DNA from: Flavobacteriales bacterium
Lineage (GTDB): Bacteria > Bacteroidota > Bacteroidia > Palsa-965
Assembly (NCBI GenBank): GCA_040377305.1
Contig: JBEIPA010000044.1
Location: forward strand, 1 to 27,357
Direction: 5' to 3'
Length of the DNA stretch: 27,357 nt
A model generated the notes under the pieces. It was given only the letters and a program-made list of their open reading frames with translations. It was not told the origin of the DNA and made no database searches. Numbering within the stretch: position 1 is the first letter of the stretch; each line of letters opens with the position of its first letter. A program made the position numbers and the translations under genes. Below, piece by piece: positions 8,450-27,357 of this stretch.

Positions 8450-8540
8450 TTGTGCGTTGAACATTGAACTTTGACACTTTACGCCTATGACCCGATGAAA
8501 GTAAAGTGTCAATGAACAACGCTCAAGTGGCAAGTAACAA
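8450..8540. repeat. heptamer-periodic imperfect inverted repeat
   Basis: Left arm TTGTGCG-TTGAACA-TTGAACT-TTGACAC. Right arm GTGTCAA-TGAACAA-CGCTCAA-GTGGCAA-GTAACAA. Perfect 12-bp core TTGACACTTTAC (8471-8482) / GTAAAGTGTCAA (8501-8512). Confidence 0.75.
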
Positions 8541-8570: not shown

Positions 8571-9122
8571 ATGATCACCATCATCAACTTCGGCTCTACC
8601 AAAACACCACAGATACTTTCCGTGGTGCGCGAATTAGGTTTTGAAGCTGAAGAAAAAAACTGGAAAGAATTTTCTGCGGCTGATTACGCTAAGCAGGATA
8701 AAATTATTTTCAGCGGATCGCCGACTTATCTCACCGAAGTAGATCACACTCCTTACACTGAAAGATATTCCTGCATCAAAGAAGGAAAAGTTCCTGTGCT
8801 AGGAATTTGTTTCGGTCATCAGGTAATGGGAATTATTCACGGCGCGAAAATATTTCGTGGTGAGCCAATTCGCACGGATGTTACAATCACCGTTGTGAAA
8901 GAAGACAAGCTTTTCGAAGGACTCGCTCCAACAACCGTAATGCGACAAGATCACACAGAAGGAATTTCATTGCCTGCTGGTTTCATTCATCTCGCCTACT
9001 CGAAAGATTACGCGATTGAAGCCATGCGGCATCCGTATTTACCGTTGTGGGGAACGCAGTTTCATCCGGAGGTTTCGGGGGAGAATGGCAGGCGGCTGAT
9101 TCAGAATTTTCTGAAGCACTAG
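8571..9122 (+). CDS. class I glutamine amidotransferase (stand-alone, GMP-synthase GATase-like)
   Basis: INFGS start, IIFSGSP oxyanion strand, PVLGICFGHQ nucleophile elbow and QFHPE catalytic His-Glu. Confidence 0.92.
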   Translation: MITIINFGSTKTPQILSVVRELGFEAEEKNWKEFSAADYAKQDKIIFSGSPTYLTEVDHTPYTERYSCIKEGKVPVLGICFGHQVMGIIHGAKIFRGEPIRTDVTITVVKEDKLFEGLAPTTVMRQDHTEGISLPAGFIHLAYSKDYAIEAMRHPYLPLWGTQFHPEVSGENGRRLIQNFLKH

Positions 9123-9134
9123 TCCGTGTTTTGT

Positions 9135-9443
9135 TTCCGTGGGCGAAAGCCGTAATTCCTAAAGTTCCAGTCGATGTTATGTTCCGTGGGCTAAAGTCGA
9201 AGCTCCCGAAGCTCCAGTCCATATTATCTTCCGTGGGCTAAAGCTAAATTTCCCCGAAGCTCCAGTCCATATTATCTTCTGTGGGCTAAAGCTAAATTCC
9301 CCCGAAGCTCCAGTCCATATTATCTTCCGTGGGCTAAAGCTAAATTTCCTAAAGTCCCAGTCGATGTTATGTTCCGTGGGCTAAAGCTAAATTTCCCCGA
9401 AGCTCCAGTCCATATTATCTTCCGTGGGCTAAAGCCGCACGGA
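9135..9443. repeat. tandem array of six 47/48-bp units plus a terminal REP-like hairpin
   Basis: Units start at 9135, 9182, 9229, 9277, 9325 and 9372, with a partial unit at 9420. Each begins TTCCGTGGGCTAAAG or a 1-nt variant. The last reads TCCGTG-GGC-TAAA-GCC-G-CACGGA. Lies between convergent genes. Confidence 0.95.
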
Positions 9444-13696: not shown

Positions 13697-13715
13697 TGGA
13701 GAAAGGTAAGGAAAA

Positions 13716-13813
13716 AGTGGCAGCGGCAGTCGCAGTGGCAATCAGTAAACAGTATTCCGTTTTTAACCAATCCTGACTGAAAACTGACTGCAACTGCGAC
13801 TGCAACTGTGACT
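13716..13813. repeat. hexamer-periodic imperfect inverted repeat
   Basis: 38-nt arms at 13716-13753 and 13776-13813 match at 29 of 38 positions as reverse complements. They are built of (g)CAGTnn / ACTGnn units and lie between divergent genes. Confidence 0.8.
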
Positions 13814-13832
13814 TCCCGTAACGTCGATTTGC

Positions 13833-21256: not shown

Positions 21257-21646
21257 ATGGCAGGCTTTTTCAATAGCGTTGTCAATTCAAAGTGCCCGCG
21301 CTGCAATCTCGACAATCTTTATGTTGACAACAATCCTTATCATTTGTCCAAGCTCGCGCAAATGAAAAAGTGTTGTGACAAATGCGGACAACTTTACGAA
21401 CCTGAAACCGGATTTTACTACGGTGCCATGTATGTGAGCTACGCGCTCGGCATCGCACTGATGTTCGTTCCGGCGTATCTTCTGTATATGGTGTTCGATA
21501 TCAGCTTCGGTTGGTTACTCACATTCGTTCTCTCTGTTTACGTCCTTACATTTCCACTCGTGTTCCGATGGTCAAGAAACATCTGGCTGAATATTTTTGT
21601 GAAGTTTGACGAAGAGGTGCATAACAAGCTTGCTTCAAAGTTTTGA
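21257..21646 (+). CDS. DUF983 domain membrane protein
   Basis: KCPRC...CDKCG zinc-binding pairs, EPETGFYYGAMYVSYA, two TM helices and RWSRNIW. Confidence 0.9.
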   Translation: MAGFFNSVVNSKCPRCNLDNLYVDNNPYHLSKLAQMKKCCDKCGQLYEPETGFYYGAMYVSYALGIALMFVPAYLLYMVFDISFGWLLTFVLSVYVLTFPLVFRWSRNIWLNIFVKFDEEVHNKLASKF

Positions 21647-21852
21647 AAATCCCGCGAAGCTCACGATAATATTCCCTCTCTCAGGCCGCTAGAGAGACAG
21701 CGAGAATTTTGACGTCGTGGTGGTAAAAAAAATCAGCGCATGTAACTTTGGGCAACTGGGAGCGTCTTATAGGATTAACCCTCGAAACCTGCGTTTTTTC
21801 GCTAATTTTTGGCACTCGGTTTGCCATGTTATAGTAAAATGCCATATTTGTT

Positions 21853-22278
21853 ATGATGACGCTCAAATCAATTCAATTCCGAAAACTTGCACTGGCTATT
21901 ATACCCATTGCATTTTTGGTTGTTTCTTGCCAGCCCGACGAAGCAGAACCTGCAGATGACCGGGATAAGTTCGTGGATGTTTGGCACGTAGTTGAAACCA
22001 GTTCGCAGATCGGGAACACACCGTACGATGTGCACATCAATTTATCTACAACAAACACCTCTCAGGTTTTGATGGAGAACTTCTACAACGTAGGATTTTC
22101 TTTCAAAGCTGTTGCCAGTGTTTCCGGCACTTCACTCACTCTCGCGAATCAGACTTACAACTCAAGCCAGTTGCAGGGTAACGGAAGCATGAACGGTAAT
22201 AACACGATCAACATGAGCTATACAGTGAACGACGGTAGCTCTATTGACACTTGCACAGCGGTTTTCACCCGCCAATAA
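21853..22278 (+). CDS. hypothetical lipoprotein
   Basis: Lipobox LVVSC followed by acidic residues and DDRDKFVDVW. Beta-rich body. Confidence 0.85.
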   Translation: MMTLKSIQFRKLALAIIPIAFLVVSCQPDEAEPADDRDKFVDVWHVVETSSQIGNTPYDVHINLSTTNTSQVLMENFYNVGFSFKAVASVSGTSLTLANQTYNSSQLQGNGSMNGNNTINMSYTVNDGSSIDTCTAVFTRQ

Positions 22279-23510: not shown

Positions 23511-23736
23511 TACCGGCAAGGCGTATTTTTGACCACAAAGCGCACGAAGGCACAAAGTTTTACTTCGTGCTATTTCTTTGTGTCTTGGTGTACTTAGTGG
23601 TAAAACCTAAGAGCGTAACGTTGTTCCCACTGATGAAATAGCTGATCCGTCAAGCCAATCTTATTGACCACAAAGCACACAAAGGCACAAAGTTTTGCTG
23701 TGTACGATTTCTTGGCGTTTTGGCGTCTTGGCGGTA
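23511..23736. repeat. two 8/9-mer-periodic palindromic elements between convergent genes
   Basis: Hairpin A: ACCACAAAGCGCACGAAGGCACAAAG (23532-23557) / CTTTGTGTCTTGGTGTACTTAGTGGT (23576-23601). A second left arm starts at 23667. Outer arms TACCGGCAAGGCG (23511-23523) / CGTCTTGGCGGTA (23724-23736) match at 11 of 13. Confidence 0.85.
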
Positions 23737-23742
23737 GACTTT

Positions 23743-26214
23743 CTAAGAGCGTAGCGTCGCACCCACCTGCTCTTCAAACGCCTTCTGCAACTTCTCCATC
23801 GTCTTATCAATCTGCTTATCGGTCAACGTAGCTTCGTTGTCTTGCAGAACAAAACTCAACGCGTATTGCTTCTTGTCGCCACCAAGCTTATCGCCTTCGT
23901 AAACGTCAAACAAATTCAGTTCGCGCAATAGCTTGCGCTCTGTATTCCATGCAATTTCTTCGAGCTGCTGATACGTAACGCCTTTCGCAATTACAAGTGC
24001 AAGATCTCTACGCACCGAAGGAAATTTTCCAACTTCCTCAAAACGTGTCGGCTTTACTTTTCCTAAGAGACGCATGATCGTACTCCACTCAAATTCTGCT
24101 GCAAGAACAATTCCTTGTGTGTCTGTTTGCTTGAGTGTGCTTTTCGAAATAACGCCCATGCGCACAACTTCACGCTTGCCTTGCATAGCAACAAGTCCTT
24201 CGCTGTAGAGCGGATTCGAAATGGACTGCCACTTCAAACCGTCCAGTTTTAGTTTGCGTAGAATCACTTCTACTTCGCGACGAATATCAGCGAAAGAAAC
24301 TTTCTCCGCTTTGCCCGCCCACGTTTCCGGCTGCTTGTTGCCGGTGATGAGCATCAGCAGGTGTTCGTTTTCTTCCCAATTCCATCCTTCGAAATTGGGT
24401 TCAGAAAGAGTGCTGTACACTTTGCCAAACTCGAATACGCGCAGGTCTGTCGATTTACGATTCTGATTATAAGTCAATGTCTCCAATCCACCGAACAACA
24501 AAGTCTGACGCATCACACCTAAATCAGAGCTCAGCGGATTCAAAACTTTCACTGCGCGTTGTGCTTCTTCGCCCTGAAGCTGCTCGGAGTACGAAGTCTT
24601 CGTAAGCGAATTATTCATGAGCTCACGAAAACCGCGCGACGATAAATTATTCGAAATCGTTTCGCGCACATTCTCCGGATCAGGATTCTTCATCTTCGAA
24701 GCGGAAATCTGCAGCTTCTCCGGGAAGCCAATATTGTTGTAGCCGTACACGCGGAGAATTTCTTCTACCACATCGGCCGGACGCGTAACATCCACTTTGA
24801 AATGCGGAATGGACAACAACAAGGCATCTGCCCCGTCTGAAAGAATCTGAATACCAAGTGCAGTGAGAATCTTGCGAATAATATTGTGTTCAATTCTCTT
24901 TCCGATAAGTTTATCGCACTGATCGAACGAGAAAGAAATTTCAAGCGGTTCTGTTTTTCCGGGATAAACATCGCTCACTTGCGAAGCTGCTTTACCGGAA
25001 GACGTATACTCCATGAGATACACCGCACGCAACAACGCAGTGACTGTAATCTCCGGATCTGATCCGCGTTCGAAACGGAAAGAAGAATCTGTTTTAAGCT
25101 GATGATGTTTCGAGGTTTTACGCACGTGTACAGAATCAAACGCAGCGCTCTCGAGGAATACACGCTTTGTACTTTCGTTCACACCGGAATCTAATCCTCC
25201 GAAAACGCCCGCTATACACATCGCTTTGTTCTCATCGCATATCATGAGATCAGTCGAAGTTAAGTCACGAGTCGCGCCATCCAGGGTAGTAAATTTCGTT
25301 CCCAAAGAAACCTTTTTCACTTTCACTTTTCCACCGCCGATTTTGTCTGCATCAAACGCATGCAAAGGCTGACCGGTTTCGTGCATCACGTAATTTGTAA
25401 TGTCAACGATATTATTGATCGGACGCAATCCGATTGACTTCAAACGATTCTGCAACCACTCCGGCGACGGTCCGACTTTAATTTCATCAATGAGAATTCC
25501 CGAATAACGCTTGCATGCAACGCTGTCTTCAATCTCAATCGCGATCGGACAAGCCGGCAACTCTTCTGACGTAGTTGCAAGCGTAGGATATCTCGCTTCA
25601 GCAGATTCTGCGTGAATATCTTTAATCAGTTTTTGCGCAAGCACAACTGCAGCCAAATCTCTCGCCACACCAAAATGCGATGCTGCATCAGAACGATTCG
25701 GAGTCAATCCGATTTCCAGAATTGCATCGGAACTTACGTTGTAATATGCTGCAGCAGGTGTTCCCACTTTCGCATCAGCAGGCAACACAATAATTCCCGC
25801 ATGCGATTTACCGAGACCAATTTCATCTTCCGCACAAATCATTCCTTCCGAATTCTCGCCGCGAATTTTCGACTTCTTGATTTCGAATGGTTCACCTTCC
25901 GTTGGATATAATTTCGCACCAACTGTTGCCACAACCACTTTTTGTCCGGCTTCCACATTCGGTGCACCACAAACAATACTCAGCAATTCCGCACCACCCA
26001 CATCAACTTTCGTGAGCGACAATTTATCTGCATTCGGGTGCTTCGAACATTCCTTCACTTCTCCGATCACAACACCACGCAATCCGCCAGGCAAACTTTC
26101 AAAAGGCTCCACGCTTTCTACTTCGAGTCCGCAATCCGTTAGGGCAGCAGAAATTTCCTCTGCCGTGAGGTCGGTTGGATAGTATTCTTTGAGCCAATTG
26201 AGGGATATTTTCAT
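23743..26214 (-). CDS. pheT: phenylalanine--tRNA ligase beta subunit
   Basis: MKISLNWLKEY start (ATG at 26214). Motifs HPNADKL, IVCGAPNV, SEGMIC, LTPNRSD, INNIVDITNY, GQPLHAFD, RFERG, FPSVRRDLA and LFDVYEG. Confidence 0.98.
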   Translation of the reverse strand: MKISLNWLKEYYPTDLTAEEISAALTDCGLEVESVEPFESLPGGLRGVVIGEVKECSKHPNADKLSLTKVDVGGAELLSIVCGAPNVEAGQKVVVATVGAKLYPTEGEPFEIKKSKIRGENSEGMICAEDEIGLGKSHAGIIVLPADAKVGTPAAAYYNVSSDAILEIGLTPNRSDAASHFGVARDLAAVVLAQKLIKDIHAESAEARYPTLATTSEELPACPIAIEIEDSVACKRYSGILIDEIKVGPSPEWLQNRLKSIGLRPINNIVDITNYVMHETGQPLHAFDADKIGGGKVKVKKVSLGTKFTTLDGATRDLTSTDLMICDENKAMCIAGVFGGLDSGVNESTKRVFLESAAFDSVHVRKTSKHHQLKTDSSFRFERGSDPEITVTALLRAVYLMEYTSSGKAASQVSDVYPGKTEPLEISFSFDQCDKLIGKRIEHNIIRKILTALGIQILSDGADALLLSIPHFKVDVTRPADVVEEILRVYGYNNIGFPEKLQISASKMKNPDPENVRETISNNLSSRGFRELMNNSLTKTSYSEQLQGEEAQRAVKVLNPLSSDLGVMRQTLLFGGLETLTYNQNRKSTDLRVFEFGKVYSTLSEPNFEGWNWEENEHLLMLITGNKQPETWAGKAEKVSFADIRREVEVILRKLKLDGLKWQSISNPLYSEGLVAMQGKREVVRMGVISKSTLKQTDTQGIVLAAEFEWSTIMRLLGKVKPTRFEEVGKFPSVRRDLALVIAKGVTYQQLEEIAWNTERKLLRELNLFDVYEGDKLGGDKKQYALSFVLQDNEATLTDKQIDKTMEKLQKAFEEQVGATLRS

Positions 26215-26220
26215 AGCCCA

Positions 26221-26228
26221 CGAAATTA
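26221..26228 (-). promoter_or_regulatory. -7-like element (TAATTTCG) for pheT
   Basis: One-mismatch TAnnTTTG variant 6 nt upstream of the pheT ATG. Confidence 0.55.
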
Positions 26229-26239
26229 CGCTGTTTTGG

Positions 26240-26455
26240 ACCACATAGGAACATAGAAACGTCACTAAAAAAGGGTTTCGACAAGTCGAAACATACATAG
26301 TTCACAGGAGTAATATTCCTTACGGAATATTGATTGCTTGGCATGAAGTGGTTACAAAGGGGGGATGATCCTCATCTTCCCTTACTCTTGTGAACTATGT
26401 ATCGCGCTTTTGCGCGCCTTTTTCTAACACCTAACACACTATGATCCTATGTGGT
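26240..26455. repeat. complete copy of a multi-branched structured element with 17-bp terminal inverted repeats
   Basis: P1 26240-26256/26439-26455 (16 of 17). P2 26268-26274/26417-26423. H1 26275-26292. P3 26293-26313/26382-26402 (21 bp, one G-T). H2 26314-26329. H3 26359-26381. H4 26403-26416. Confidence 0.9.
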
Positions 26456-26480
26456 TATAAATTTTTCGGGCGGGATACCA

Positions 26481-26531
26481 GACAAGTCGTTGCGTACATA
26501 GTTCCCAGAAGTGTATTACTGACGGAATATT
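26481..26531. repeat. degenerate left-internal copy (H1-P3-H2 part) of the structured element
   Basis: GACAAGTCG..TACATAGTTC.CAG.AGT..TATT.CT.ACGGAATATT aligns with 26280-26331. Confidence 0.75.
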
Positions 26532-26579
26532 ATTATTTTGTGTATTATTCATCATGTATTAATTTGATATTTAAAGACT

Positions 26580-26987
26580 ATGACGAAACAGGAACTAGAC
26601 AAACTCAGCTATGATGTTATCGGAGCAGCAATTGAGGTTCATCGTATCCTTGGACCCGGATTACTGGAAGCAATGTATCACAAGTGTATGATGAAGGAGT
26701 TGACTTTGCGAAAACTGAAATTCAAATCAGAACTCAAGGTCGACGTGGAATACAAGGGAGATAAAATCAAAACCGGACTTCGATGCGATCTTCTCGTGGA
26801 AGACATATTGGTGGTTGAACTCAAAGCAGTCAATGAACGGAATCCCCTTTTTGAAGCGCAACTATTGACATACATGAAGCTACTTGGCAAACCCAAAGGC
26901 ATCCTAATCCACTTTAATTGTCACAACATTTTCAAAGACGGTCAAAAAACTTTCGTCAACAAACTCTACGAAAACCTCGCCGCGTGA
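26580..26987 (+). CDS. GxxExxY protein (PD-(D/E)XK nuclease-like)
   Basis: IGAAIEVHRILGPGLLEAMY contains GxxExxY. CDLLVEDILVVELK supplies the D...ExK motif. AQLLTYMKL and GILIHF are also family motifs. Confidence 0.95.
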   Translation: MTKQELDKLSYDVIGAAIEVHRILGPGLLEAMYHKCMMKELTLRKLKFKSELKVDVEYKGDKIKTGLRCDLLVEDILVVELKAVNERNPLFEAQLLTYMKLLGKPKGILIHFNCHNIFKDGQKTFVNKLYENLAA

Positions 26988-26988
26988 A

Positions 26989-27357
26989 ACCACATAGAAT
27001 CATAGAAATCGTGGCTTAAAAAAGGGTTCCGACTTGTCGGAACCCTTTCTCTTGTGAACTATGTATCGCGCTTTCGCGCGCCTTTTTTCTAACACCTAAC
27101 ACACTATGTTCCTATGTGGTTAACAGCGCCATTTTCTAACACCTAACACCCTATGATACTACGTGGTTAAAGTCGAGGTAACAAATGGGAGATGTTTCAC
27201 ATCTCCCGTTTCTCTTGTGACCTATGTATCGCGCTTTTGCGCGCCTTTTTCTAACACCCAACACCCTATGTTCCTATGTGTTTAACAGCGCCTTTTTTCT
27301 AACACCTAACACCCTATGATATTACGTGGTTAAAGTCGAGGTAACAAATGGGAGATG
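26989..27357. repeat. downstream copies of the structured element, including a 163-bp tandem repeat truncated by the window end
   Basis: A copy at 26989-27120 starts right after the stop codon. TTTCTCTTGTGA recurs at 27046 and 27209, and GGGAGATG at 27187 and 27350, giving a period of 163. Confidence 0.92.

Follow-up and report, generated by a model that had tools for sequence, protein, structure and literature searches.

Genes for GxxExxY proteins and the palindromic repeats that surround them go together by protein clade. The pairing is real, strongly non-random and apparently undescribed in print: no title or abstract among those listed by our literature search pairs GxxExxY, TIGR04256, PF13366 or PDDEXK_3 with repeats, and PMC3424549 lists PF13366 as of "Unknown" function with multiple transfers. 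Judged from the sequences and by analogy, the protein likely cuts and spreads its repeat, much in the way proposed for REP repeats and their transposases, which are unrelated to it.

The GxxExxY locus and its setting

The window, the whole 27,357-nt stretch of DNA analyzed here, is the entire contig C53 of the source genome (G000), which is 5.18 Mb in size, near-complete, and has its nearest GxxExxY relatives mostly in named Bacteroidota. The GxxExxY locus occupies the end of this contig, upstream of pheT, and consists of the following features:

23743..26214, minus strand: pheT (phenylalanyl-tRNA synthetase beta), the left neighbor, with transcription directed away from the element
26221..26228, minus strand: TAATTTCG, a −7-like box of pheT, read from the sequence; comparable boxes occur in congeners
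26240..26455, no strand assigned: full gene-less element, from repeat and fold analysis
26481..26531, plus strand: degenerate left half copy, 81% identity over 52 nt to 26280–26331
26580..26987, plus strand: GxxExxY protein, 135 aa, PD-(D/E)XK fold, with E30, D70, E80-x-K82 and Q94-xxx-Y98
26989..27120, no strand assigned: internally deleted element, starting 1 nt past the GxxExxY stop codon
27121..27357, plus strand: tandem array with a 163-bp period, made of right-hand element pieces with two inverted-type arms per unit

The full element begins 11 nt upstream of TAATTTCG, which resembles the Bacteroidota −7 promoter box and would serve pheT. All the pieces named in the original prediction, a GxxExxY gene with an intact D...ExK motif among full, half and deleted copies and a 163-bp array, were confirmed by sequence. 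No cas genes were found at the locus, and profile and fold searches revealed no DDE transposase between the inverted ends.

Repeat finding placed the array at 27046–27357 (163-bp period, 1.9 copies, 94% matches). It had been described as running off the window and does continue on contig C11, the end of which matches it at 96–98% and then runs into a TMEM260-like (PF11028) gene, but there it appears to be finite, stopping 6 nt short of the −7-like box of that gene. Because the end of C11 matches the array and the TMEM260-like gene is the gene that follows pheT in congeners, C53 and C11 probably join inside this finite array. Sequencing depth in run X1, possibly the source sample, was 57 for the array unit vs. 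13.5–17.8 for unique pieces, which hints at about 3–4 units. Contigs from the same run span both the pheT–element and the element–gene junctions, and run X3, from another study, spans the gene and the downstream element with 0 differences.

Repeats of other kinds also occur in the window. An array of 47–48-bp units starting with TTCCGTGGGCTAAAG (9113–9437; 5.8 copies by TRF) lies between convergent glutamine amidotransferase and glucosaminidase-LysM genes and has no close copy elsewhere in the source genome, and palindromes at 13715–13814 and 8457–8526 have arms of 6–7-nt repeats and represent a different repeat class.

Architecture and folding of the element

The element forms a nested palindrome bounded by CACATAG-doublet arms in inverted orientation, and its general plan is an outer arm, made of ACCACATAG and a second CATAG 8 nt further on, a leg with a side hairpin, an inner arm and a central hairpin, then the same parts mirrored in reverse. 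In the full copy the outer arm, a CACATAG doublet (26240–26256), is followed by a side hairpin (26275–26292), the inner arm (26293–26313), central hairpins, the inverted inner arm (26382–26402), a GCGC side hairpin (26403–26416) and the inverted outer arm (26439–26455). This 216-nt copy (26240–26455) folds with z-scores of −13.2 as RNA and −12.3 as DNA, and 0 of 200 shuffles were equally stable. The half copy, 48 nt 5′ of the ATG, keeps a remnant of the side hairpin, the inner arm and the first central hairpin. The deleted copy lacks the left inner arm and the center and retains the left outer arm, the left hairpin and the entire right half; base pairing of its right arm with the left arm of the full copy (at 26240) places the GxxExxY gene in the loop of an 880-nt nested palindrome. 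The 890 nt spanning these two arms fold with a z-score of −8.9 vs. 20 shuffles.

The original prediction had considered a folded RNA or single-stranded DNA element. Wobble (G-U) pairs show no bias toward either strand (5 vs. 8 and 10 vs. 15, small counts) and RNA folding energy prefers one strand in 12 of 23 elements, so that a strand-specific fold is unsupported on these small counts; the absence of a wobble strand bias fits DNA better than RNA. For the full copy, no Rfam family reached its gathering score (best 35.9 bits vs. 47). A four-way junction forms when the gene-side element folds, and we considered a perfect junction, mimicking a Holliday junction, as a general feature and rejected it, as only the gene-side copy, 1 of 40 elements, has it.

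A predicted RecB-type nuclease

The open reading frame at 26580–26987 matches TIGR04256 (E 3.9e-37, 127.2 bits vs. a cut-off of 35) and PF13366 (E 1.8e-36, 125.5 bits vs. 22), and its 135-aa product has D70 and E80-L-K82 intact. Across 184 aligned GxxExxY proteins, D70 and K82 are present in all 184 and E30 and E80 in 183 each, with all four together in 182, and QxxxY occurs in 151. The combination of E, D, ExK and QxxxY corresponds to the RecB motifs described for Cas4 (PMC8610317). By motif and by model, then, the protein carries motifs I (E), II (D) and III (ExK) plus QxxxY on a restriction-enzyme fold, as expected of RecB-type PD-(D/E)XK nucleases, and we infer that it is an active metal-dependent DNase of the RecB/Cas4 type. 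No cysteine column reaches 75% in the 184 rows, and hence the four cysteines of a Cas4-type Fe-S cluster were not found as conserved positions.

With the predicted structure (pLDDT 96), Foldseek returned no match at E ≤ 0.001, the best being Cas4 SSO0001 at 1.7e-3, and VIA-align scored CinB (Z 8.0, rmsd 3.4, 118 aligned), BpuSI (7.5) and SSO0001 (7.5), with Hjc lower at 6.7. These matches tie, and the modeled fold is on this account a generic PD-(D/E)XK core. Searching the PDB by sequence gave a single chance-level row, and none of the entries listed holds RNA. Nine columns are specific to the CACATAG group, all within residues 99–133; our guess is that these may read the arm.

Association of gene and repeat across genomes

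Genes of the GxxExxY/PF13366 family are widespread (about 7100 stored stretches in the genome collection, as estimated with two peptide patterns). We assembled 195 GxxExxY loci from 29 initial loci, 80 of about 160 further places listed, 80 peptide-pattern loci and 6 paralogs of the source genome; the set excludes one locus from an unpublished genome and leans to Bacteroidia and close relatives. Among the 188 loci with full flanks (two of them duplicates), 122 have 200-nt flanks that share an inverted repeat with a score of 28 or more, vs. 10 of 1000 longer control genes of the source genome and 4.8% of mismatched flank pairs. The flank check that had been proposed for the repeat was thus run, and the expected enrichment beside GxxExxY genes is present.

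The gene had also been described as lone, which holds at its locus but not in the genome, where GxxExxY has 8 matches. Five inspected paralogs carry five different inverted arm types, one each, and these types also occur without a gene (20, 10 and 15 paired elements elsewhere for the three types counted), indicating that arm type tracks the protein and not the host. A second dispersed palindrome, centered on AAACGTTT, has 74 relaxed matches in the source genome vs. 3 for a reversed control (e.g., C10:11350, C10:136818, C11:49454, C43:12031, and C4:46470). It lies 50–70 nt upstream of three GxxExxY paralogs, of Y1 transposase genes and of other small genes, and from its sequence and placement looks like an operator; it is absent at the C53 locus and present upstream of 10 of the 195 GxxExxY loci.

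The proposed co-phylogeny was examined on a quick tree of 185 proteins with arm labels defined after the arms had been viewed, and arm type follows protein clade. The 43 CACATAG-labeled rows require 3 changes on the tree vs. 37.3 when shuffled, and the six arm labels together 27 vs. 80.1, the CACAAAG- and CACAGAG-type labels being mixed (21 and 19 changes). All 43 CACATAG rows fall in one 61-row fork (SH-aLRT 92) together with 15 unlabeled and 3 other rows; the 60-row node just inside it has a support of only 17. Hosts in the fork belong to the Bacteroidota, Acidobacteriota and Ignavibacteriota, with 3 Acidobacteriota and 1 Ignavibacteriota among the CACATAG rows. Three loci labeled Bifidobacterium (L151), Rhizobium (L175) and Chryseobacterium (L144) are of Bacteroidota type and likely come from mis-binned or mislabeled contigs; L151 and L175 were excluded from the transfer count, and L144 agrees with locus L004 of the congener G024 in its protein and in its flank result.

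Repeat abundance likewise follows gene presence. Across 301 genomes of the class, hand-counted and including kin that are not independent, at least 10 exact arms were present in 14 of 32 genomes with a clade gene (match at E ≤ 1e-36) vs. 6 of 269 without (odds ratio 34), and 13 of the 32 have no more than 2 exact arms, the exact pattern missing variants. Four of five arm-rich genomes without a clade match carry other or more distant GxxExxY genes; the fifth, G134, a single-contig genome that is 99% complete, lacks any TIGR04256 match despite its 28 exact arms. Protein and repeat had been proposed to form one system, which agrees with their association by clade, but, as in G134, gene-less copies can persist without the gene. 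In a repeat-first sample, 15 of 128 arm-bearing metagenome loci contain a GxxExxY gene; 13 of these genes best match rows of the CACATAG fork, and 2 match close relatives absent from the tree. Five of the six metagenome arm pairs wider than 330 nt enclose a GxxExxY gene. Carriage by phages was considered and rejected: on viral contigs, 0 of 73 arm-bearing loci contain such a gene, and 6 have paired arms. A RAYT was considered as mobilizer in the source genome and rejected, since 0 of its 10 Y1 transposase (PF01797) genes have a CACATAG arm within 600–700 nt.

Dispersed gene-less copies in the source genome

The source genome contains 40 paired CACATAG elements, 38 of them away from a GxxExxY gene, with fold z-scores from −2.3 to −17.6; the exact arm pattern misses variants (18 exact vs. 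118 relaxed matches). The elements are polar mosaics, none with two legs of one identified type, in which a frequent left leg combines with several right legs, and two outer arms resemble each other more if they belong to one element (1.45 differences) than if they come from different ones (1.77; p 0.0025). At each end a direct CACATAG doublet follows TWA, with side hairpins further inward: A precedes all 80 element ends, and T stands at −3 in 69 of them.

Where a stop codon lies within 60 nt, 21 of 41 element ends begin right after it, vs. nulls of 0.10 and, per gene, 0.29 (p 0.002). This adjacency is special to the CACATAG type (0/21, 0/6, and 3/16 for the other three types), with counts that depend on the chosen start of the arm patterns, and the stop codon is in its native position at both sites with readable orthologues. 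By crude ORF calls, convergent genes border 18 of the 37 typed elements, compared with a genome-wide share of 661 convergent pairs in 4099 (16%). Target-site duplications in the 40 elements did not exceed shuffles at 3, 4, 5 or 8 nt; a 6-nt duplication was present in 3 of 40 vs. 0.96 expected, and old copies may have lost theirs.

The CACAAAG type is a sister arm family with many copies in the source genome, two of which, gene-less and in tandem, stand at the pheT 3′ end between convergent genes (window 23526–23766). At C18:19512–19740, a lone CACATAG arm is fused to two CACAAAG-type elements, showing that arm families insert into or beside one another.

Orthologous sites and mobility

The GxxExxY gene is present at the pheT junction in 0 of 25 published congeners (two loci with <600 nt of flank). 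Where the TMEM260-like gene is adjacent to pheT, the junction consists of a short spacer free of visible repeats in six congeners, of repeats of other types in four, and of a gene-less CACATAG array in the closest congener, G015. The divergent promoter region upstream of pheT takes at least five repeat types across species (L032–L057), and in G024 the two −7-like boxes directly flank a palindrome.

A syntenic junction in the source genome was obtained for 23 of the 48 congener GxxExxY loci: 4 of these also have the gene, 5 (at four sites) have a gene-less palindrome of the same repeat class, and the remainder have other repeats, none, or doubtful matches. At L002/L006, L065, L069, and L097, the gene-bearing site of the congener corresponds in the source genome to a palindrome that lacks the gene and is of the same type or a sister type. 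A search for filled and empty sites had been suggested, and filled, gene-less and empty states do occur at orthologous sites of congeners but not as a strain-level insertion allele: among the joints listed for the runs (X2 and X3 at only about 3x) there was no empty or clean insertion allele, and one of four site searches in five congeners gave no match. At the DUF983 3′ end (window 21646–21853), the source genome has a decayed hairpin, and G015 has a CACATAG-clade GxxExxY gene with its element.

Elements keep their sites in G015 and in a run of about 86–88% identity, with a replaced interior (199 other letters at one element in that run), which argues that new insertion is slow. The 42 CACATAG-armed genes fall into 24 neighborhood groups, the largest common to about 8 Flavobacterium-like genomes, and some GxxExxY sites are common to kin. 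Shared sites, interior turnover and the 24 neighborhoods together suggest that sites are long inherited and interiors change, and that the gene relocates on a longer scale. GxxExxY genes are mostly co-oriented with their neighbors (35 of 41 upstream, 33 of 37 downstream). A recent sweep of the gene, considered on account of the 0 differences in runs X2 and X3 vs. 2–4% in pheT, was rejected because other regions also show 0 differences.

In two cases the arms enclose unrelated genes: a lipoprotein-like ORF in the source genome (C19:156827–157334) and a weakly TPR-like, membrane-anchored ORF in G134 (L484, C1:2508407–2509039). Passenger capture is a possible explanation for both.

Proposed mechanism and alternative explanations

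We give slightly better than even chances to a system resembling REPIN-RAYT that would be run by an unrelated nuclease, which would recognize its cognate arms on folded DNA and nick near the stem foot, leaving host repair to copy the element. The GxxExxY protein would recognize its own CACATAG arms, perhaps through the clade-specific C-terminal residues K106, N116, F118, Q122, and T124, on a hairpin or cruciform DNA substrate presumably cut near the T(A/T)A|CCAC stem foot. A hydrolytic nuclease cannot itself rejoin DNA, and the copying step would therefore require host enzymes. Host repair would copy the nicked, folded element to new intergenic sites, with template switching or recombination giving rise to new copies, swapped halves, tandem arrays and captured passenger genes, and might also account for rare moves of the gene-filled form.

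Among the alternatives, the protein may be a domesticated binder or RNA processor, which binds or trims hairpins in DNA or at mRNA 3′ ends for the host, for example in termination or in mRNA turnover where genes converge, and controls its own expression via the flanking copies while the repeats multiply by slippage or recombination without it. The excess of elements between convergent genes, the ends abutting stop codons, the co-orientation of GxxExxY genes with their neighbors and the sites kept across congeners would all fit. We nevertheless consider it unlikely: G-U pairs are not favored on the transcribed strand, nor on one strand of the element over the other, the pheT locus lies between divergent promoters, and REP ends also supply stop codons (PMC3733652), so that stop adjacency fits a mobile repeat too. 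A somewhat smaller probability attaches to the arms bounding an exchangeable cassette that a different enzyme, or recombination by the host, would move, with GxxExxY as the commonest cargo, linked to arm type by descent. Other genes do lie between the same arms, G134 retains its arms without the gene, and simple linkage would be enough to group the arm labels on the tree; yet GxxExxY is what five of the six wide arm pairs of an unbiased sample contain, genome-wide arm number tracks the cognate gene, no Y1 transposase of the source genome adjoins arms, and the catalytic residues are nearly invariant.

Structure-directed homing, in which the nuclease would cut extrudable gene-less palindromes and spare gene-filled ones, repair from the filled copy then pasting the gene into the loop, strikes us as improbable. 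PD-(D/E)XK homing endonucleases exist, and one, I-Bth0305I, appeared as a weak Foldseek row. The congener gene sites that match gene-less same- or sister-type palindromes in the source genome are what homing would leave, as is the reverse state at pheT (gene in the source genome vs. gene-less in G015), but these pairs would also result if the gene were lost from the loop, and only one of about 39 CACATAG sites in the source genome has the gene. The favored explanation, copying by host repair after nicking by the cognate nuclease, is in turn weakened by the arm-rich, gene-free G134 and the many clade-gene genomes with no more than 2 exact arms, by arms around unrelated genes, by the lack of a clean insertion allele or target duplication, by the poorly sorted CACAAAG and CACAGAG labels, by slow insertion and by the generic fold ties.

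More tentatively, and with rather less confidence than in the mechanism itself, GxxExxY proteins could be the enzymes behind a large class of semi-domesticated mobile DNA that has so far gone undescribed, in which a minimal RecB-type nuclease would read a short iteron code on folded DNA and arm and protein would co-diversify into orthogonal pairs, bringing palindromes to gene ends, moving their own gene and capturing passengers with no transposase or recombinase chemistry. The match of clade to arm names a specific substrate for each protein, which opens the function of the family to direct tests with oligonucleotides. Should the protein prove to spread the repeats, REPIN-like systems would have at least two origins, based on unrelated enzymes, and a population of repeats could be maintained by no more than a hydrolytic nuclease. 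Several orthogonal protein-arm pairs within a single genome would also constitute a compact set of structure- and sequence-specific nucleases.

Comparison with known systems

MITEs and their autonomous insertion sequences share with the present elements inverted ends, gene-filled and gene-less forms and occasional passenger genes. They differ in that no DDE transposase and no target-site duplication were detected here, the copies are divergent mosaics, and one cognate gene per genome is the rule. RecB-type nucleases (Cas4 SSO0001/4ic1, AddB, lambda exonuclease) have the same E, D, ExK and QxxxY motifs as GxxExxY, which is however only 135 aa long, without a conserved four-cysteine Fe-S staple and without cas genes at the locus. 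The system is neither a DDE element nor Cas4. Archaeal Hjc (1gef) likewise consists of a minimal PD-(D/E)XK domain, comparable in size (VIA Z 6.7, rmsd 3.2, 86 aligned), and the four-way junction of the gene-side element recalls its substrate, but the match ties with those to many other nucleases, a perfect junction is confined to that one element, and the QxxxY of GxxExxY is a RecB-type feature. To our knowledge, QxxxY is absent from Hjc.

The closest parallel is REPIN-RAYT, as described in 10.1101/2022.05.22.493013, PMC3116915, and PMC3733652. Both systems comprise dispersed intergenic nested palindromes of about 100–250 nt with conserved ends and a variable middle, asymmetric halves, tandem arrays, and ends that supply or abut stop codons. 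In both, a genome may hold several divergent partner genes, each with its own repeat group (as for Group 3 RAYTs), and a repeat group is tied to one partner gene, the exceptions being arm-rich genomes without the cognate gene. The partner here is a PD-(D/E)XK protein (PF13366), whereas RAYT is a Y1 HUH transposase. Each end here carries a direct 8–9-nt doublet as its terminal arm, whereas REP is a hairpin tagged GTAG/CGTC. The GxxExxY gene, in addition, sits within the loop, changes neighborhood and crosses phyla, and RAYTs are described in those sources as immobile and vertically inherited. The system thus works like REPIN-RAYT, yet stands outside it in enzyme, end structure and immobility.
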